A stretch of DNA of 64,000 nucleotides. Origin: Minisyncoccota bacterium. GTDB taxonomy: Bacteria > Patescibacteriota > Minisyncoccia > Phycocordibacterales > UBA2100. The notes beneath the pieces were generated by a model that was not told where the DNA came from, searched no databases, and saw only the letters and a list, made by a program, of their open reading frames with translations. The stretch's first letter is position 1. Each line of letters starts with the position of its first letter. The position numbers and the translations under genes are program-made. Below, piece by piece: positions 2,936-38,143 of the stretch. The stretch covers positions 199,711 to 263,710 of the forward strand of contig JALHPE010000001.1 in NCBI GenBank assembly GCA_022842645.1. Direction: 5' to 3'.

Positions 2936-3296
2936 ATGCATACTACTTCGGCTTTCGCCGCTCTTTTACAAGATTCGTAGTCTGGACTATGCCTTCATCC
3001 GTTTCCTTTTTGAGGAATGAGGATGCTCGCCATCTAGTCTCTACACCTTCCCTGCTTCGCTAGCAGCTAGCAGGACTTGGCTCGGCATTATCACCTCTTT
3101 CGAGAAGACTTCACCGAATTTGACGAGTGTTCCACCGTCCGTTTCCAGGCGGCGAGCCCATTCTTGAGCCTCACGAGCTACTACTGCTCCACCCCGCTAT
3201 ACACCAATGGAAAAACCATCAGTACTGGCGAGTATATCATCCCGTACTATATCGGCAAATGTAGACAACAGAAAGCATAAATGACTACCTCGTGAT

Positions 3297-3995
3297 ATGA
3301 TACATATAATGGCTTCAACGATAAAACGTGATGAGGCACGAGCGTTGCGAGGACGAGGTGAAAGCATAAACACCATCGTCGCACACACGGGCATTAGCAA
3401 GAGTACCGTCAGTTATTGGTGCCGAGACATTCCCCTTTCAAAATCCCAACGGGAAGCGTTAGCAAAAAAGCAAAGTATCGGGGGCATGCTGGGACGATTG
3501 CATGCCGCCGAAAAGAAACGGGCACAACGGCTTGAGTCTGTAAAAGTAGATATGGCACGTGGTGCGCGTGACGTAAAGTCACTTTCAGATCGAGATATTT
3601 TCATGCTAGGACTTGGACTATATTGGGGCGAAGGATATAAGAATGGAAATGAGGAATGCGCTCTTACAAATTCAGATCCCGGTGTAATACAAGCTTTTAT
3701 TCGTTGGGCACGGAGCGCATATGGAATACGGCATACAGATCTAATTTTGCGCGTTTCAGTAAACGAAGCTCATAGAAGTAGAGTAGGTGCTATTGAAAAA
3801 TACTGGTCGCAGATTACCAGTGCCCCCCTTTCCCAATTCACAAAAACAAGCCTCATTCATACAAAGACAAAGAAACACTACGCAAATCATGAGAACCATT
3901 TCGGTACATTACGAGTGAAGGTGCGCAAAGCCACCTCCCTACGACGGAGAATACTCGGCTCAATAGAAGCTCTCCGTAAAATACACGCTAAATGA
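3297..3995 (+). CDS. Hypothetical protein with N-terminal helix-turn-helix and a LAGLIDADG-like motif (MLGLGLYWGEGYK)
   Basis: 232 aa. N-terminal ARALRGRGESINTIVAHTGISKSTV is HTH-like. A single LGLxxGEG motif resembles single-motif LAGLIDADG homing endonucleases. Locally lower GC. Confidence 0.35.
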   Translation: MIHIMASTIKRDEARALRGRGESINTIVAHTGISKSTVSYWCRDIPLSKSQREALAKKQSIGGMLGRLHAAEKKRAQRLESVKVDMARGARDVKSLSDRDIFMLGLGLYWGEGYKNGNEECALTNSDPGVIQAFIRWARSAYGIRHTDLILRVSVNEAHRSRVGAIEKYWSQITSAPLSQFTKTSLIHTKTKKHYANHENHFGTLRVKVRKATSLRRRILGSIEALRKIHAK

Positions 3996-20699: not shown

Positions 20700-23486
20700 T
20701 TAGTACGTCGGGAAACTCTGTGTGGGCACGGGTGGAGCGAATCGCTCGCGGATCTCCGCCTCGATCTCTCCCCTGTCCTTGCCGAACGTACGATACGAAA
20801 GTTCTTTGAGTGCGTCAACATGCGCGTGGTCGAAGGCGGGTAGGTTGGCTGTCTTGATAGTAAAGGGGCGAGCGGGCGTACCGTTCACAAGGAGTGCAAC
20901 GGATGCGTGTCTATTCTCCTGATTTTCGAGGTCGCTCCTTATGAAGACAGGATGAAATTGTTTTTCGAGAAACTCGGCGTCGGTGGTACCGATGCGAAAT
21001 GCGATTTTCGTGCCGACGTTCCCAATAACTGCATCACGAATCTCCTCCGGAAGCTGTGCAATAAATTGATGCGCGACCGTAAGCGCGAGTTTGTATTTAC
21101 GCGCCTCGGAGAGGATGGTTGAAATGGAGGGAGTAGCAAAGTTTTGGAACTCATCGATATAGAGATAAAAAACCGGGAGATCACCCTTCGTATCCACGCG
21201 GGAGAACGCCGCTTGGAGGAATTTTGATACAAGAACTAACCCTAGAAGCGATGCGTTGCGCTCGCCGAGACGCCCCTTCGAGAGATTGGCGAGGAAGATT
21301 TTCTTACCATCCATCATCTCGCGGAAGTCGAACGCACTCTCCTGCTGGGCGACGATGGGGCGCATGATGTCGTTGGCGAGAAAAACGTCGAACTTCGACG
21401 TGATATAGGGGACGATGTTTTCGAGTGAGGCTTCCCCGCCTGCGGCTTCAGCAATTTTCTTCCAGAACTGCACGATGACGGGATTATTGCAGCGTGAGAT
21501 TTTAAGATTTCTAAACGAAGAATCAGCAAACACACGCGGGATCTCGAGGAAGGTGGAGCCGGTGTCGGGGTCTTCCACCACCAGCTGCACGGCGTTGCGG
21601 TAGTATTGCTCAAACATAGGACCAAACGCCTCGGGCACGTCGGCATAGAGCTTGCGGAAGATTTGGTACACCTCGTCGACGACGAATGTCTTCATCTCCG
21701 GCTTCGCGCGGTCGTATTCGAGCATGTTGAGCCCCATCGGGCGGGCAGAGTACGCCGGGTCAAAGTAAATAACATCTTGTATGCGCTCGGGCGGCACGGC
21801 GGCAAGCACATCCTGAATGTCGTTTCCGTGCGGATCAATGAAGGCAACTCCCTCACCATTCAACATGTCTTGGATGATCATGTTCTTGATGAGCCCGGTT
21901 TTTCCCGTACCCGTCTGCCCAATCACATAGCAGTGGCGAAGGCGATCCTGCACGCCGTAGCGCACCTCGCGCTCGTCGGCGCCATAGCGGTTAAGCCCCA
22001 AGAGAATGCCATCCGCGGGCATCTCGACTGGTGCAGGAGCTTGTTTTGCATGCGCTTTCTTGAGTTCGCGAGAAGTCGTGACGCGCTCAGCAGTAAAGTG
22101 CACCATGGTCGCAATTTCGCTTAGGGAAAGTGGAATCGCAGACGCACTATCGAATGAGCGATAGGTAAAATCACGCAAGGGATTTCCAAATTCAGGAAGC
22201 CAGCCGCTTCCAGCTTTCGTGAATCGCAAACGATTCCCTTTTGAATCATCAAACTGATTGAAGGGTGAAATGAGATTATCAAGAAGCACGTTTGCGCGCG
22301 CCTGATCGGGAGCTGAAGCAACGAGACGAATAACCGCAGGCACAATCCTGCTTTTTATCTTTCTCCCAATTTCTTCGGTTGCCACCTGATCCCCTTGCCG
22401 ATTCGCATGCTTTGCTGCTTCGCGCTCCTTCTCGGAAGTCATGACGGTCTTTACGACATCGTGCACAAAATCACCAAACACTGTTTCAGGAGTTTTCAGT
22501 GCCTCATCGAGATGCTTTCCATGTTCAAGCGCGCGGAGAATCTTTTTGTAGTGTTGGTTGTACCGCTCGCCTTCGGATGAAACGACGATTTGAAGTGCGG
22601 CTCCTTCGCCGTGTTTTGCAATCTTTGCAAACGCAGCAAGAAGCACGTTCATTGGGTCATGCTCGAAAAGTTCGTAGGTTTTGAGTGGGTACGCGGGATG
22701 CTCGGCAAGTGTTGCGGTTGCCGAGGCGTGCGCACCTTCGTAGTTAAAGATGTTGTAATCGCCCCGAAGCTCGGAGATGCGCGCATTGGGGAAGACCGAT
22801 GAGATAAGACGTTCGGCAAGTGCCTGTTTTGCGCGCGGAACAGCCAGATAGAGCGCCGCCTCTTCCGTGCCCTCAGCAACCGCAATTTCAATTGAAAAAC
22901 CTTCGGCAGGAGTAATGAGGGAAAGGAGCCCCGCATAGAGCTGTTCGGAGGATGCGAGGATTTGCTCGAGCTTCTGCTCTCGGCGATCTTCCCCCTCTCC
23001 ATGCGCCTGAGGGTGTATCTCGAAGAGAACGAGGTGGAGTGCTCGGGAGACCCGCTCAGGGGCAGGAATACCCTTCTGTGGGAGCCCCTCGGCGATGTAG
23101 CGTACAAGGACGCGATGGAGGTCATCCTCAAGGTGAGGGTTTTTGAGCTTGCTTACCACCGACAGAGCGTTCCGAATACCCTGCTCGGAAACAATCTTTA
23201 GAAGTCCGTCCATCTGGGTATCGTGCGCCTCGGGCTCGAGTTTTAGCGCCTGGCGTAAAATCTCGTGTTCAGGCATCGCAACTGCTTCGTGCAAGACTCC
23301 TTGCGGAGTAACTGTGCCATATTCCTGCACCTCGCGCCGTGCAATGCGTTCTCTGTCGGGCATGGCAACTGCCTCAATTTCTTTTTCTTTCTCGGCAACG
23401 CGCGCGCGCAAAAATTGCAACTCCTCTTCTGGAGATTTAAACGTGAACGAAGGCGTGATCGCACGCTCCCCTGTTCGCGGCGGCAT
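20700..23486 (-). CDS. Large P-loop NTPase, HerA/FtsK/VirD4-like (DUF87-type) C-terminal domain, about 500-aa acidic helical N-terminal region
   Basis: Walker A VIGQTGTGKTGLIKNM followed by FIDPHGNDIQD (DPHG box of HerA/DUF87-like ATPases). Walker B VFYLYIDEFQNF. Confidence 0.55.
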   Translation of the reverse strand: MPPRTGERAITPSFTFKSPEEELQFLRARVAEKEKEIEAVAMPDRERIARREVQEYGTVTPQGVLHEAVAMPEHEILRQALKLEPEAHDTQMDGLLKIVSEQGIRNALSVVSKLKNPHLEDDLHRVLVRYIAEGLPQKGIPAPERVSRALHLVLFEIHPQAHGEGEDRREQKLEQILASSEQLYAGLLSLITPAEGFSIEIAVAEGTEEAALYLAVPRAKQALAERLISSVFPNARISELRGDYNIFNYEGAHASATATLAEHPAYPLKTYELFEHDPMNVLLAAFAKIAKHGEGAALQIVVSSEGERYNQHYKKILRALEHGKHLDEALKTPETVFGDFVHDVVKTVMTSEKEREAAKHANRQGDQVATEEIGRKIKSRIVPAVIRLVASAPDQARANVLLDNLISPFNQFDDSKGNRLRFTKAGSGWLPEFGNPLRDFTYRSFDSASAIPLSLSEIATMVHFTAERVTTSRELKKAHAKQAPAPVEMPADGILLGLNRYGADEREVRYGVQDRLRHCYVIGQTGTGKTGLIKNMIIQDMLNGEGVAFIDPHGNDIQDVLAAVPPERIQDVIYFDPAYSARPMGLNMLEYDRAKPEMKTFVVDEVYQIFRKLYADVPEAFGPMFEQYYRNAVQLVVEDPDTGSTFLEIPRVFADSSFRNLKISRCNNPVIVQFWKKIAEAAGGEASLENIVPYITSKFDVFLANDIMRPIVAQQESAFDFREMMDGKKIFLANLSKGRLGERNASLLGLVLVSKFLQAAFSRVDTKGDLPVFYLYIDEFQNFATPSISTILSEARKYKLALTVAHQFIAQLPEEIRDAVIGNVGTKIAFRIGTTDAEFLEKQFHPVFIRSDLENQENRHASVALLVNGTPARPFTIKTANLPAFDHAHVDALKELSYRTFGKDRGEIEAEIRERFAPPVPTQSFPTY

Positions 23487-25010: not shown

Positions 25011-25606
25011 GCAAGTCCGAGTGCTTTAAGAATATTTTGATGAATAGTTTCAGGATCAGGCTCGCCGTCGATTACATGCACAGTGCGACCACGCTCTTTC
25101 AAAAGCGCGAGTTGTGGGAGGACGTCGCTTTTGTACCATGAGAGACGATTTCTTATTCCCTCTTCGGTGTCGTCATTTCTGCCGCGAGCAAGAAGACGCT
25201 CCATCACCGAGCTTTCAGAGAGTTCAATAGAAACCACTTGAAAATCCTCGCGCCCAAAATAGTGCATGGCGTCATCAAAGCCACGCGTTTGATCCGCGCC
25301 GCGCGCGAGACCATCGGCAATCACGTGCTCCTCACCCGTAATGAGTTCTGTAACGAGCTTTTTTGTTTGGAGGTATATGGGCATAAAATCCGGCATGCGG
25401 TGCCCAGCGTCGATCGTAGCACCTGTGAGTTTCCCAGCATACGAACCACCATCGCGGAGTGCACGAAGCTCGGAACCCATATCAATATGAATAATGCCGC
25501 GCTCAGGCTCGCGGTTTTTCAAAAAATCCATGAGGAGTTTTACCTGCGTCCCCTTACCAGCGCCTTGGGAGCCAAAAAAAAGGACCGAGAATGGTCGTGT
25601 GTTCAT
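25007..25606 (-). CDS. adk: Adenylate kinase
   Basis: P-loop FFGSQGAGKGTQ, NMP-binding and LID regions. Immediately upstream of map, as in the spc/alpha cluster. Confidence 0.85.
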   Translation of the reverse strand: MNTRPFSVLFFGSQGAGKGTQVKLLMDFLKNREPERGIIHIDMGSELRALRDGGSYAGKLTGATIDAGHRMPDFMPIYLQTKKLVTELITGEEHVIADGLARGADQTRGFDDAMHYFGREDFQVVSIELSESSVMERLLARGRNDDTEEGIRNRLSWYKSDVLPQLALLKERGRTVHVIDGEPDPETIHQNILKALGLA

Positions 25607-26205
25607 GCGCCCAGATTATAGCCTTCTTTTGTGAGGATTTCTATTACCCCGTCTATCGCCGCCTCGAGCTTCCCTTCCTCATTGGTAATGCGGTAGTCAT
25701 AGAAAGGCGCATCTTCTTCCATCTCGCGACGAGTGTGCGTGAGACGTTCCTGCCACTCAATGTCGCTCATAGGCGCGCGTGCGCGCACACGTTTTTCCAA
25801 AATCTCAAGTGAAGGCGGCATGATGAAAATCGTCGTGGCATCATAGTGCTCCTTCAGGTAGCGTGCGCCGACAATTTGAATGACGGCAAAGACCACTTTC
25901 CCGCTTGCAATGCGGGCTTCTATATCCGGCTTGTAGGTGCCGTAATACGTATCGGTGTCAGCCCGATGATAGTGTTCAAGAATGTTTCCCGCTTGAAGTT
26001 CGGTAAGAAATTTTCCCTTAGTGAGAAAGTGGTAATTGACACCGTTCTCTTCTCCGGGGCGCATGGGACGGGTAGTTGCCGTCACCATGAGAGTCGCGTT
26101 CGGTGCGCGCCTCAGAACGCCTTGCACGACCGAATCTTTCCCGCTCCCTGCGGGTCCTGCAATCACAACCACCTGCTTCTGCATGCGCGCCATAGTAGCA
26201 CGCAA
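25603..26205 (-). CDS. gmk: Guanylate kinase
   Basis: GPAGSGKDSV...TTRPMRPGEENGVNYHF (TTRxxRxGE GMP-binding motif). Confidence 0.8.
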   Translation of the reverse strand: MRATMARMQKQVVVIAGPAGSGKDSVVQGVLRRAPNATLMVTATTRPMRPGEENGVNYHFLTKGKFLTELQAGNILEHYHRADTDTYYGTYKPDIEARIASGKVVFAVIQIVGARYLKEHYDATTIFIMPPSLEILEKRVRARAPMSDIEWQERLTHTRREMEEDAPFYDYRITNEEGKLEAAIDGVIEILTKEGYNLGA

Positions 26206-27486: not shown

Positions 27487-27933
27487 TTAAGAAATACTCC
27501 CTCCCGCTTTTTCAATTGCAGCCTTTGCACCCACCGTTGCAAGCACGCCAGAAACCGTCAGCTTCTTAGAAGCCGTAGCGCCCACGAGCTTCACCTGAGG
27601 AGCCTTGCGGCCTTTCTTCACGGAAATAAGCCCTGCTTCAGCGAGTGTTTGTGGGTTGATCGCACCTGTGAGTTTCTCAAGTTGCGAGAGTGTAATCGTG
27701 ACTGGACGCGGCTTCTTTTCCCAAACAGTGCGGCCACGGTTCTTACCGTATCCACGGCGCTTCGGAATTTTCTTGATGATATCGCGGAGTTCCGGTCGAC
27801 GCTTATTACCTGCGCGCGCAGTCTGACCCTTACCACCACGCCCCGATTGTTTACCTCGCGTAGAAGACTGTCCGCGCCCAACACGGCGGTATGCACGCTT
27901 CGTCATTCGCTTGAGTGTGTGAAGTGCTTTCAT
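27487..27933 (-). CDS. rplO: 50S ribosomal protein L15
   Basis: MKALHTLKR...RRVGRGQSSTRGKQSGRGGKGQ... Gly/Arg-rich L15 N-terminus. Confidence 0.85.
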   Translation of the reverse strand: MKALHTLKRMTKRAYRRVGRGQSSTRGKQSGRGGKGQTARAGNKRRPELRDIIKKIPKRRGYGKNRGRTVWEKKPRPVTITLSQLEKLTGAINPQTLAEAGLISVKKGRKAPQVKLVGATASKKLTVSGVLATVGAKAAIEKAGGSIS

Positions 27934-27937
27934 ATAA

Positions 27938-28540
27938 TTATTTTGCAATCTGCTTCAACGCTTCAATAGCAGCACGTGCGTTGTTGATTGGATTGTGCGA
28001 GCGCGAAAGAATCTTTGCAGTAACGTCGGTCACTCCTGCGAGCTCCAAGACTGAACGCACGGATGAGCCGGCCACAAGACCGCGACCCGGAGAAGGACGA
28101 ATCTCAAGCACTGATGCGGCATATTTTGCACTCACATCGTGCTTGATAGAGTTCGTCTTCGTAAGATCAACAGTGATCATTGCGCGCTTTGCAGCACGAG
28201 ACGCCTTCTCGATTGCAAGCTGTGTGTCTGCAGCCTTACCGAGACCAACACCCACACGGCCTTTCTTATCGCCAAGCGCCATACACACGGAGAAATTAAA
28301 ACGGCGACCGCCTGCCATCACACGAGCAACACGACGGATGGAGAGCATTTTTTGCTCAAATTCTGAGCGACGTTCGTCGCCCCCACGGCGCGGACCACGC
28401 CCTCCCCCGCGACGATCGCGACCAGGAGCGCCTCGACCTCCTCGTGCACCACGAACATTCGCCAGCGGAACATTGGCGGGAACATCCGCCACCGCCGCTT
28501 CGCTTACCTGTGCATCAATTACCTGTGTTTCGTCAGTCAT
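27938..28540 (-). CDS. rpsE: 30S ribosomal protein S5 (Arg/Gly-rich N-terminal extension)
   Basis: ...RRVARVMAGGRRFNFSVCMALGDKKGRVGVGLGKA... S5 dsRBD core. Start taken at MTDETQ, 5 nt after the rplR stop. Confidence 0.85.
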   Translation of the reverse strand: MTDETQVIDAQVSEAAVADVPANVPLANVRGARGGRGAPGRDRRGGGRGPRRGGDERRSEFEQKMLSIRRVARVMAGGRRFNFSVCMALGDKKGRVGVGLGKAADTQLAIEKASRAAKRAMITVDLTKTNSIKHDVSAKYAASVLEIRPSPGRGLVAGSSVRSVLELAGVTDVTAKILSRSHNPINNARAAIEALKQIAK

Positions 28541-29846: not shown

Positions 29847-30032
29847 TTACCAAGAGGATTTCTTCACGCCCGGGATATTGCCCTCAAGTGCCTCCTCGCG
29901 GAAGCAGATGCGGCACAGGTTGAAATCGCGCATAAAGCCGCGCGGACGACCGCACTTAAAGCAACGACGAACCGTACGCGAAGAGAACTTCGGCGTGCGA
30001 TTTGCTTTTACGATCATGGACTTTTTGGCCAT
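29847..30032 (-). CDS. rpsZ: 30S ribosomal protein S14 type Z (Zn-ribbon, 61 aa)
   Basis: [46 protein letters not shown] (CxxC...CxxC). Confidence 0.88.
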
Positions 30033-30269
30033 ATGAATGGTGCTCTTAGGAGTGTTTCGAGGCCTGCACCCGGGCTTTCGCCGCTGGGTTATGGACTCTC
30101 GGATGGCCTCTGTTTCTGGCAGTATCCGTCGGATGACGGACTTACGGAAAAACGGAGTCCCCTATGAGGCTCGTGCATACTACCCGAGGAGGAATAGGAA
30201 GTCAAATGCTTGTCATCACAATAATTTTCATATAGCTTTAACAAGGTCATTGGTTTAGAAGGAACACAT

Positions 30270-30671
30270 TTGATGCCCCACCAAAAACCGCTTGCCAACA
30301 AGTCACTTCTTCAGCATCGCATGAACGAAGAGGCGCGCGTTGGCTATGCACTTGCTCTTAAGTACGGAGCCCGTAAGACAGCTGCTCTGATACGTCTCGG
30401 TAGATTCGCGAGCTACGGCCCAGCGATTGCATGCGCCTGGCGGGAACTGGATATGGCAAAAACCGTTAGCGCACTTATCGAAATCGGTAATCCTGACTGG
30501 GCATTCTGTGCAATTCGGTACGCCCCGAATATAACCGCGGCGCAACGCCAATCCTTAATACCCGTTCTTTCCGAAGACTGCTTTAAGCGTGCAGAGTGGC
30601 AGCTCACACACATAATCCACCTTAGCGATGATGAGAAGAAAAATGTACAGTGGATTATTGACCAACGATAA
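30270..30671 (+). CDS. Hypothetical protein (part of the antisense insertion in the ribosomal cluster)
   Basis: 133-aa ORF with no motif, followed by a 10-bp-stem hairpin (30676-30705). Confidence 0.35.
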   Translation: MMPHQKPLANKSLLQHRMNEEARVGYALALKYGARKTAALIRLGRFASYGPAIACAWRELDMAKTVSALIEIGNPDWAFCAIRYAPNITAAQRQSLIPVLSEDCFKRAEWQLTHIIHLSDDEKKNVQWIIDQR

Positions 30672-30778
30672 AGATCCTCACCGGCGCAAGCTGGTGAGGA
30701 TCTGCTCTTAGTCAGAAATTGGGGTCAGGTACCATTTGGCTTATTGACAAAACTATACCAGAATATATATTTGAGTAT

Positions 30779-31069
30779 ATGACTACTACCACCGTACTTT
30801 TTAAGACTGATAAAAAGCTGAAGGCGCAGGCGCAGGCGACCGCAAAAAAGATGGGTATTCCCTTCTCCGCCGCGATGAATCGCCTCATGCAAGAATTCGT
30901 TGAGCGACAACACATTACGTTCGATACGAAACCGCTTATTCCAACGCCATATCTTGAGCGGATTCTTAAGCAGGGGGAGAAGAATTTGAAGGAAGGTAAG
31001 GTCAAACGATTTGATAGTGTTGATGCATTATTTGACGATCTTGAAGATAGAATTGCAAAAAAGAAATAG
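30779..31069 (+). CDS. Type II antitoxin, RelB/DinJ family (ribbon-helix-helix)
   Basis: MTTTTVLFKTDKKLKAQAQATAKKMGIPFSAAMNRLMQEFVERQHITFD is the typical DinJ/RelB N-terminus. 2-bp gap to the toxin gene. Confidence 0.7.
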   Translation: MTTTTVLFKTDKKLKAQAQATAKKMGIPFSAAMNRLMQEFVERQHITFDTKPLIPTPYLERILKQGEKNLKEGKVKRFDSVDALFDDLEDRIAKKK

Positions 31070-31071
31070 TC

Positions 31072-31335
31072 ATGGAAATTATTGAAGGACGTCCTTTTGC
31101 GAAACAGTTTGCAAAACTTCCTCAAAATCTCAGGATGAAGGTGCGTGAGCGGGTGCACATGCTTGTTGCGGATAGTACTCACCCGCTCCTCAATGACCAC
31201 AAGCTCAATCCTCCCTACGAGGGATACCGGAGCATCAATATCACCGGCGATTTTCGCCTTGTGTACAAGAAAATCAGTGACGATACCTATTACTTGCGGG
31301 CAGTTGGCACCCACCACGAGCTCTATAAATCCTAG
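31072..31335 (+). CDS. Type II toxin, RelE/YafQ/ParE-superfamily mRNA interferase
   Basis: 87 aa. C-terminal ...GYRSINITGDFRLVYKKISDDTYYLRAVGTHHELY matches the RelE/YafQ fold signature (R...GxxRLIY...L.vG.H.dlY). Confidence 0.7.
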   Translation: MEIIEGRPFAKQFAKLPQNLRMKVRERVHMLVADSTHPLLNDHKLNPPYEGYRSINITGDFRLVYKKISDDTYYLRAVGTHHELYKS

Positions 31336-31359
31336 ATTGAGCGGCAGCTCATTAAAAAA

Positions 31360-31379
31360 CCGCCTTGCGGCGGTTTTTT
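31360..31379. terminator. Bidirectional intrinsic terminator (ccgcc-ttgc-ggcgg flanked by A6/T6)
   Basis: Sits between the toxin stop and the rplE stop. Would terminate both the plus-strand TA transcript and minus-strand read-through from rplE. Confidence 0.6.
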
Positions 31380-31381
31380 CT

Positions 31382-31930
31382 TTATGCTTTGAGTGGGAGC
31401 CCGAGGTGGCGCAGAAACGCTTCTGCTTCCTTCTTGTTCTTTGCGGTTGTGGTGATCGTGACAGCAAGACCGAAAATATCTTTTGCTTCTTCGTCGGCGG
31501 TTTCAGGGAAAACCATGTGTTCCTTGAAGCCGAGTGTGATGTTTCCCATCTCATCAATAGCCTTCGGATCGATACCGCGGAAGTCGCGCACGCGTGGAAA
31601 GACGATGTTCACAAGCTTATCAAGAAAACTCTGCATACGTGCGCCGCGAAGCGTTACCTGGTAGCCAGAAAGGTCGCCACGACGAGTTTTGAAGTTTGCG
31701 ATGGATTTCGTTGTTGAACGAGGTGCCGGCTTCTGACCCGTGAGACGCGTAAGACGGTCATTGATGAGTTCGAGGCGCTTCTTGTCTTTTATGCTCCCAA
31801 CACCGGTTGAAACGATGATTTTCTGTACGCGTGGTGCCTGCATGGGGCTTGTATAGTTGAAATCCCCCTTAAGAGCAGCGAAGGTTCCTTTAAATTTTTC
31901 TGCAGAGGTAATGGTTTTCATATTATGCAA
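31382..31930 (-). CDS. rplE: 50S ribosomal protein L5
   Basis: ...PRVQKIIVSTGVG...ITLGFKEHMVFPE L5 signature. Confidence 0.9.
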   Translation of the reverse strand: MHNMKTITSAEKFKGTFAALKGDFNYTSPMQAPRVQKIIVSTGVGSIKDKKRLELINDRLTRLTGQKPAPRSTTKSIANFKTRRGDLSGYQVTLRGARMQSFLDKLVNIVFPRVRDFRGIDPKAIDEMGNITLGFKEHMVFPETADEEAKDIFGLAVTITTTAKNKKEAEAFLRHLGLPLKA

Positions 31931-37723: not shown

Positions 37724-38143
37724 TTAGGACACTATTTTATCTGGCGACCCACCCTCACGGCGCTTTTTGCGCTGGATTGCGAGGAATAGCCATACGCCAA
37801 TGAGGACGATAAAGAATGCGCCGATGGCGAGCGAGAGAGCGTTGTATGGCACGCTTTCGAGCACTTCATACACAGGCGCCTCGAATGGAACGTCATCAAA
37901 GCTATTTTGTGCCTCAAGATATTCGCCCGCCACGCCCTGATCTTCCGCTTGCGCGGCAAGCGCTTCCACCAAAGCGTCGAGCTCTGTCGGCGACATCTCT
38001 ACCGAACGCGGATCCGCCATGATGTCAGCGCGAATAGCCGCACGCAGGGCGTCTTCCTCCTGTGCCAGTGAAGAAAATGGCACAAAAAACGGCAGCATCG
38101 TTATAACAGCAAGAATGAGTGCCCACCTTCGAGCAAGAGTCAT
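37724..38143 (-). CDS. Hypothetical secreted/membrane-anchored acidic protein inserted between rpsJ and rplC
   Basis: 139 aa. N-terminal signal peptide (LILAVITMLPFFVPFSSLA), acidic middle, C-terminal TM helix + KKRREG stop-transfer. Confidence 0.45.
   Translation of the reverse strand: MTLARRWALILAVITMLPFFVPFSSLAQEEDALRAAIRADIMADPRSVEMSPTELDALVEALAAQAEDQGVAGEYLEAQNSFDDVPFEAPVYEVLESVPYNALSLAIGAFFIVLIGVWLFLAIQRKKRREGGSPDKIVS

Follow-up and report, generated by a model that had tools for sequence, protein, structure and literature searches.

The S10-spc-alpha cluster of ribosomal protein genes has one of the most conserved gene orders in bacteria. The stretch of DNA analyzed here therefore raises a question, because between two neighboring genes of this cluster, rplE (L5) and rpsZ (S14), it carries three genes on the opposite strand, two of which resemble a RelB/DinJ-YafQ toxin-antitoxin (TA) pair. 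The window, by which we mean the whole stretch analyzed [64,000 nucleotides (nt) of contig JALHPE010000001.1], derives from an uncultured Kaiserbacteria-type bacterium belonging to the Patescibacteria, also known as the candidate phyla radiation (CPR). Its L5 relatives among one-genome-per-species GTDB contigs belong to Candidatus Kaiserbacteria and to other Paceibacteria-type Patescibacteria. We examined how the three genes came to be placed at this junction, and what their presence means for the ribosomal genes on either side. As detailed below, the best explanation of the whole is probably that the ribosomal cluster of this lineage consists of two transcription units which meet between rplE and rpsZ.

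A six-frame reading of positions 26-36 kb identified the usual set of ribosomal genes, all on the minus strand. In the order of transcription, the upstream block consists of rplB, rpsS, rplV, rpsC, rplP, rpmC, rpsQ, rplN, rplX, and rplE, and the downstream block of rpsZ, rpsH, rplF, rplR, rpsE, rplO, and secY. The last gene of the upstream unit, rplE, is located at 31382-31921 (or to 31930) on the minus strand (NF000585, 188.2 bits; 179 amino acids in the gene call). The first gene of the downstream block, rpsZ (29847-30032, minus strand), encodes an S14 protein of the zinc-binding type Z with a CxxC...CxxC motif (NF005974, 106.9 bits; PF00253). The genes between them encode, on the plus strand, a 132-amino acid helical protein, a RelB/DinJ antitoxin and a YafQ-type toxin, and are followed by a bidirectional intrinsic terminator. 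The original prediction, which was made from the sequence alone, had described the segment as three plus-strand open reading frames (ORFs) of lower GC content, closed by a bidirectional terminator abutting the rplE stop codon. This description holds: the ORFs are where it had placed them or a few bases away, and the GC content is lower, if modestly so (0.474 for the segment and 0.433 for relB versus 0.52-0.53 for the flanking ribosomal genes). The terminator (31354-31379, both strands) has an 11-bp stem flanked by A6 and T6 and a predicted stability of -21.9 and -22.5 kcal/mol on the two strands. Its edge is 2 nt away from the rplE stop codon, and it is predicted to be common to the TA operon and the ribosomal block ending with rplE. 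An identical toxin in the same context is found on 15 contigs from independent sequencing runs of one study; because these contigs share the arrangement, a misassembly or chimera was ruled out.

The junction was compared in 59 related species genomes which have both rplE and rpsZ on the locus. The gap between the two genes had a median length of 1296 nt (range 176-4307 nt) and was larger than 500 nt in 52 of the 59 genomes, whereas the control junctions L24|L5, S14|S8, and S8|L6 had medians of -6, 5, and -27 nt, respectively, and none exceeded 500 nt. Six further genomes had no rpsZ within 5 kb of rplE. The cargo of the gap differs from genome to genome and includes 16-17 S-adenosylmethionine (SAM) methyltransferases, five PaaX/Cas2-like proteins, four YafQ toxins and three EamA transporters, as well as MazF, NYN, and GNAT proteins and many RelB-like antitoxins. 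tRNA genes were found neither in the window nor in 60 related loci, and integrases do not occur among the listed cargo families, no search for repeats flanking the gap boundaries having been made. From these comparisons the rplE-rpsZ junction appears to be a lineage-wide variable islet between two transcription units, with the TA pair as one of many tenants.

Despite the unrelated cargo, the 160 nt upstream of rpsZ are conserved at the nucleotide level. A promoter scan identified a sigma-70-type promoter on the minus strand at 30205-30177 (TTGACT-17 nt-TAGTAT), and a motif with the same spacing [TTGAC(T/A)-17 nt-TAnnnT, usually TATATT] lies immediately in front of the leader described below in all 47 genomes in which this leader was found. 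An internal promoter between 30033 and 30270 had been among the suggestions of the original prediction and is borne out in this way. Its premise of a contiguous, co-transcribed rplE-rpsZ-rpsH is not supported in this lineage, as the downstream block has a predicted promoter and a structured leader of its own. The leader RNA is about 140 nt long (30041-30178, minus strand; covariance model 50.3 bits, E = 7e-11) and folds as a three-way junction, which is recurrent in single-sequence folds. In helix P1, the 5' segments GCCU and GGGGG pair with CUCCU...AGGC, located 9-25 nt before the rpsZ start codon. Helix P2 is formed by GCYUUGUUUUUU and RAGAACAARGYC and encloses a variable hairpin (P2a), and P3 leads via an internal loop with invariant UAA and UGC to the P4 hairpin with its GNRA loop. 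The leader of the window itself folds into the same architecture (z = -3.0).

The covariance model was built from two near-identical leader sequences, and all matches were subsequently re-aligned to the model. RNAalifold on a plain MAFFT alignment returned only 13 pairs because the variable hairpin was misaligned, and a column-wise pairing scan was too noisy. The model gave exactly one full-length match in each of 47 of the 81 sources, always upstream of rpsZ and on the same strand. Metagenome contigs that had been gathered via the toxin, and thus independently of the RNA, were matched in 12 of the 14 cases in which S14 is carried, and the only two other metagenome matches lie at contig ends where rpsZ would follow. 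Across the 47 sequences, 91.3% of the cells were paired versus 41-56% in slid controls, compensatory changes on both sides were present in 39 of the 48 pairs, and the covariation score was 0.373 compared to less than 0.1 for the slid controls; none of 500 shuffles reached the observed values. The alignment was fitted to the model, which favors the structure; the slid controls and the independent folds both speak for a genuine signal. Compensatory changes are found for the most part in P2, P2a, P3, and P4, and P1 rests mainly on conservation (86 and 96% paired). Searching positions 29950-30350 with Rfam 15 (4227 covariance models) gave nothing overlapping the leader at E <= 10, and the gaps of 14 related loci gave nothing at gathering score. 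A published set of 20 ribosomal-leader candidates (PMC7247131) contains none for S14 or for these organisms, and a full-text literature search of incomplete coverage found no description of an rpsZ/S14 leader. Judged from its sequence conservation and covariation, the rpsZ leader is a well-supported candidate for a ribosomal-protein regulatory RNA of the rpsZ-...-secY block.

We propose that the rpsZ leader acts as an autoregulatory operator to which the product of one of the downstream ribosomal protein genes would bind. S8 is the first candidate because of the analogy with the spc operon of Escherichia coli. A different function is suggested by the 5' end of the leader, where a local hairpin (GCCUC-GUA-GGGGC) followed by a U-run cannot coexist with P1 or the base of P2, and therefore forms a possible switch. 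The element could thus be a transcription attenuator, in which the hairpin followed by UUUGUUUUUU acts as an early terminator and the formation of P1/P2 prevents termination, or it could be riboswitch-like and sense a small ligand, rather than being a protein-bound translational operator. Consistent with such a function, the hairpin and U-run are nearly invariant, a terminator scan flagged both as resembling a terminator in two relatives (L015 and L054; related loci are designated by L numbers), and the single-sequence folds alternate between the hairpin and P1 states. Nevertheless, we consider an attenuator or riboswitch unlikely. The hairpin is only 5 bp long, which is weak for an intrinsic terminator, and the U-run is itself one strand of P2, a helix with compensatory changes. 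Moreover, the distance of 9-25 nt between the 3' strand of P1 and the start codon fits translational control, and Rfam contains no known riboswitch matching the leader.

In the two-unit organization that we favor, the upstream unit of the window genome would end after rplE at the bidirectional terminator. The downstream unit would start at its own conserved sigma-70-type promoter and continue into the structured leader, whose closing helix P1 would involve the nucleotides immediately preceding the start codon of rpsZ. Cargo would enter downstream of the rplE stop codon and upstream of the rpsZ promoter. As rpsZ would be independent of read-through from rplE, DNA could be accommodated in between without polar cost, and the spacer could therefore have become a variable islet. 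In the window, the cargo would consist of a lone gene for the 132-amino acid protein and a self-contained type II RelB/DinJ-YafQ operon. Among the relatives, a strict terminator after rplE was found in 36 of 80, and GC-rich hairpins are visible in many others. Some observations speak against this organization. The smallest gaps (about 180 nt) consist of the rpsZ promoter and leader alone and have no separate terminator between rplE and the rpsZ promoter, so that read-through from rplE may feed rpsZ too in these genomes. The promoters, the terminators and the leaderless start of the antitoxin mRNA discussed below are sequence predictions. With respect to S8 as a ligand, a by-eye comparison with the helix 21 S8 site of E. 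coli 16S rRNA showed that the U-A-A/U-G core is common to both and that the U641/A642 bulge is absent from the leader, meaning that only half of the site is matched.

Several other observations concern the contents of the gap. The commonest cargo is a class I SAM methyltransferase of 230-290 amino acids, which is encoded on the ribosomal strand (in L018, L022-L024, L026, L029, L031, L033, L038, L039, L041, L042, L048, L052, L059, and L074). In many of these genomes its gene is the first ORF after rplE, and it may have joined the cluster earlier than other cargo and be co-transcribed with it. As the only sign of a mobile element, three genomes have a GIY-YIG mini-element of about 380 nt that separates the rpsZ leader from the start codon (L071:6994-7447, L069:7224-7612, and L062:8563-8940). 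It encodes an 86-amino acid nuclease (PF01541, E = 2e-16) and has inverted repeats of about 20 nt on either side (CCCAGCACCTTGTTTGTTTA / TAAACAAACAAGGTGCTGGG); in the aligned region, mean column identity among the three genomes is 84%. In addition, a conserved non-coding stretch (GGACRAGAACTKCTTCTYGTCCGGCA...GGCGGAGCGATGTTTTTG...CAAAAACCG) directly follows the rplE stop codon in L010 (5546-5625), L028 (5513-5592), and L059 (3825-3904), and a variant of it is present in L061, L064, L065, L066, and L070. Scanning seven of these eight loci identified no Rfam family at gathering score.

In the window, the first of the three plus-strand genes is a separate gene. Its ORF spans 30270-30671, and the ATG at 30273, which has its own AAGGA Shine-Dalgarno sequence, is the likelier start. 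The encoded 132-amino acid protein (30273-30671) is all-helical and matches no family; a word-indexed protein search returned the query alone, and homologues were found only via tblastn, in related loci. A stem-loop with a 14-bp stem (30672-30703, plus strand; -27.6 kcal/mol, z = -5.6) directly follows the gene and is probably the end of its transcript. The next two genes are preceded by a predicted promoter of their own (30744-30771, plus strand; TTGACA-16 nt-TATATT in the promoter scan), which matches 11 of the 12 consensus positions and ends 7 nt before the ATG of the antitoxin. An imperfect palindrome of 26 bp (30754-30779, plus strand) overlaps both the -10 element and this ATG, and is likely to be the operator of RelB. 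Of 49 related TA loci, 41 retain the motif TTGACA-N5-TATACYARRATATATAYT-N4-GTATATG. The arrangement suggests that the relB-yafQ transcript is probably autoregulated, and that the antitoxin mRNA is leaderless or nearly so.

The identity of the pair as RelB/DinJ-RelE/YafQ, put forward in the original prediction, passed a check with hidden Markov models. The antitoxin (30779-31069, plus strand, 96 amino acids) exceeds the cut-offs of TIGR02384 RelB_DinJ (51.2 bits, cut-off 45.65) and PF04221 (25.9 bits, cut-off 22.4), and the toxin (31072-31335, plus strand, 87 amino acids), which has the RelE fold, exceeds that of PF15738 YafQ_toxin (34.3 bits, cut-off 30) and is slightly under that of TIGR02385 RelE_StbE (26.8 bits, cut-off 27.9). 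The module had no match in PADLOC. The antitoxin stop codon (31067-31069) and the toxin ATG at 31072 are separated by a 2-nt spacer, and the antitoxin-first order is also found in 49 related loci. The nearest solved chains are RelB 4fxe for the antitoxin and E. coli YafQ 4ml0 (E = 1e-3), as well as YafQ-like toxins of Helicobacter pylori, for the toxin. At the sequence level, the pair reads as an intact, ordinary type II RelB/DinJ-YafQ module. By analogy with the family, the antitoxin would bind the palindrome over its own promoter and neutralize the toxin, and free YafQ would cut mRNA in the ribosomal A site.

A homologous pair occurs in the gap of L010, L011, L034, L071, and L075, and a more distant pair occurs in that of L048, the toxin end always pointing towards rplE. 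The two nearest relatives (L5 88% identical) also have the TA pair in the gap, and L098, with an L5 that is 83% identical, repeats the order rpsZ-ORF132-relB-yafQ-rplE. Metagenomes were scanned with the toxin alignment, and loci were kept in which the toxin was at least 49% identical and at least 400 nt were available downstream. A convergent rplE was located within 7-860 nt in 23 of these loci and not in 15, and none of the more distant metagenome toxins was linked to rplE. Altogether, at least 21 non-redundant lineages have the TA pair in convergent orientation to rplE, and their L5 distances reach 43%. In these 21 lineages, TA distances correlate with L5 distances (Mantel r = 0.49, p = 2e-4). 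TA divergence thus tracks rplE divergence, suggesting that the module is a long-term resident of the site. We therefore regard the pair as an apparently old occupant of the rplE-rpsZ spacer that is mostly inherited vertically and has often been lost. This view is weakened by the fact that the Mantel test uses physically linked genes and a toxin-biased sample. In addition, the pair is kept in only 6 of the 59 species genomes with a defined gap (about 10%) and 15 close homologues do not adjoin rplE, from which frequent loss and movement follow.

The constant orientation of the pair raises the possibility that its placement is functional. Transcription of the ribosomal unit, which is expressed at a very high level, running convergently into the 3' end of yafQ could lower toxin levels when ribosome synthesis is high, by polymerase collision or antisense RNA, and TA activity would then be inversely tied to growth rate. 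All 26 examined rplE-linked TA copies are convergent with rplE, and the pair has been retained at rplE across deep divergence. In about half of the 23 rplE-linked metagenome loci, the alignments of toxin and rplE end 7-29 nt apart, often too short for a terminator, and no terminator is present between the two genes in L011, L034, L071, and L075, so that convergent transcripts must overlap there. In the window, however, the strong bidirectional terminator separates the TA unit from the rplE unit and should minimize overlap. Furthermore, the TA subfamily also occurs, with the same promoter and operator, at the 15 loci away from rplE, and a single ancestral insertion explains the uniform orientation equally well. 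A functional placement seems quite unlikely to us; coupling of the toxin to ribosomal transcription is possible chiefly in the relatives without a terminator. More far-reaching, and very unlikely, is a reading in which the spacer is a selected docking bay, its cargo, above all RelB-YafQ, is wired to ribosome synthesis, and cargo and leader form a growth-rate-coupled translation brake. Convergent ribosomal transcription would in that case damp the toxin during fast growth, and the leader, with S8 or some other ribosomal protein encoded there bound to it, would serve both as attenuator and as translational operator and set the expression of the rpsZ-secY block independently. If true, such a brake would act in an organism with a minimal regulatory repertoire.

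In the alignment of the toxin to 4ml0, the DH, D, and GTH motifs are retained, the position of F91 is occupied by Y and that of H63 by N. The catalytic residues of E. coli YafQ are H50 (in DH), H63, D67 (D), H87 (in GTH), and F91; four of these five are kept in the toxin if the Y is counted as the aromatic equivalent of F91. The replacement of H63 is a point against an active toxin. Together with family scores which exceed the cut-offs just modestly, it could mean that the TA genes are decaying remnants without toxin activity. We consider decay highly improbable, since the two reading frames are undisrupted in each of the seven aligned orthologues and the promoter and operator are conserved. 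The seven toxins share 27 invariant columns, which include the DH, D, and GTHH motifs as well as the N at the H63 position, and this N is accordingly not private to the window. Finally, a recent, strain-specific horizontal insertion which broke a contiguous rplE-rpsZ-rpsH operon, the model implicit in the original prediction, would fit the low GC content of relB, the pair's presence in only six of the 59 genomes and the general mobility of TA modules, but it is scarcely credible and largely refuted, given that the junction is open in 59 of 59 relatives whatever their cargo, that 47 genomes have conserved the rpsZ promoter together with the leader, and that the two nearest relatives and at least 21 divergent lineages carry the pair with correlated divergence. 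The idea of a split operon stands relative to other bacteria; within the lineage, the split is common to all 59 relatives.

Outside the rplE-rpsZ junction, the window contains a few further features of note. A second non-canonical occupant of the ribosomal cluster is an ORF of 139 amino acids without a Pfam match, located between rpsJ (S10) and rplC (L3) (37724-38143, minus strand). No rpmD (L30) is present between rpsE (S5) and rplO (L15) (27487-28540, minus strand); the absence of L30 is a known trait of CPR bacteria. The S5 ORF allows an N-terminal extension to 230 amino acids compared to 200 amino acids in the gene call. In the tail of the cluster, a guanylate kinase gene (25603-26205, minus strand) is located between secY and adk, and a 928-amino acid DUF8128/TraG-D_C protein resembling coupling proteins is encoded at 20700-23486 (minus strand), after map and a CrtO-family gene. 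A group I intron (Rfam RF00028, 69.8 bits, E = 1e-15) was found at 2959-3222 on the minus strand, and no rRNA or tRNA gene was detected in the window. The ORF next to the intron (3297-3995, plus strand) has a weak match to a resolvase-type helix-turn-helix.

New in this study are, to the extent of our search, the hypervariable junction inside a ribosomal cluster and the rpsZ leader RNA. A full-text literature search of incomplete coverage returned neither a split spc operon in Patescibacteria nor TA modules inside ribosomal operons; no earlier description was found, and one may exist. A whole CPR family departs from the conserved gene order in that one internal junction of its ribosomal cluster is open throughout and hypervariable, and the open junction is explicable because it has, as predicted, its own promoter and leader. 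The leader is a new regulatory RNA candidate in organisms with almost no known gene regulation. TA modules are generally regarded as highly mobile. The module described here is itself ordinary, and its fixation beside ribosomal genes across deep divergence is unusual, making it a test case for how context may shape TA expression.

The TA pair resembles E. coli DinJ-YafQ (PDB 4ml0 and 4q2u) and H. pylori HP0894/HP0892 in that the antitoxin gene precedes the toxin gene and encodes a ribbon-helix-helix protein of the RelB/DinJ family. As in DinJ-YafQ, the toxin is a small YafQ-family protein with the RelE fold, in which the DH, D, and GTH motifs align and the F91 position is aromatic (Y here), and a palindrome lies across the promoter, in keeping with autoregulation. 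It differs from DinJ-YafQ in its distance to the solved chains (E of about 1e-3), in the replacement of H63 by N in the whole subfamily, in the apparently leaderless antitoxin mRNA, and in being fixed convergent to rplE in many Kaiserbacteria lineages. The rpsZ leader, like the S8 translational operator of the E. coli spc operon, is a structured RNA inside the S10-spc cluster in front of genes which include rpsH (S8), and, as in ribosomal-protein leaders, part of its structure overlaps the translation start region. Unlike the S8 operator, it is located before rpsZ rather than before rplE and is preceded by a promoter of its own, it resembles the helix 21 S8 site only partly, and it has no Rfam 15 match at E <= 10. 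The islet itself is similar to integration hotspots and accessory islets, since conserved core genes flank a changing cargo that is rich in TA modules; unlike these, its gaps contain no tRNA gene and its listed cargo families no integrase, and it is located within a ribosomal cluster. According to a published description of operon disconnection in the ribosomal cluster, the process begins when a few genes come to lie between two operons (PMC8046335). The junction shares with that process the presence of a few unrelated genes between ribosomal genes and the preserved order of the flanking genes. It differs in that the break lies inside what is elsewhere the spc operon, is universal in the lineage and hypervariable, and is accompanied by a dedicated predicted promoter and leader.

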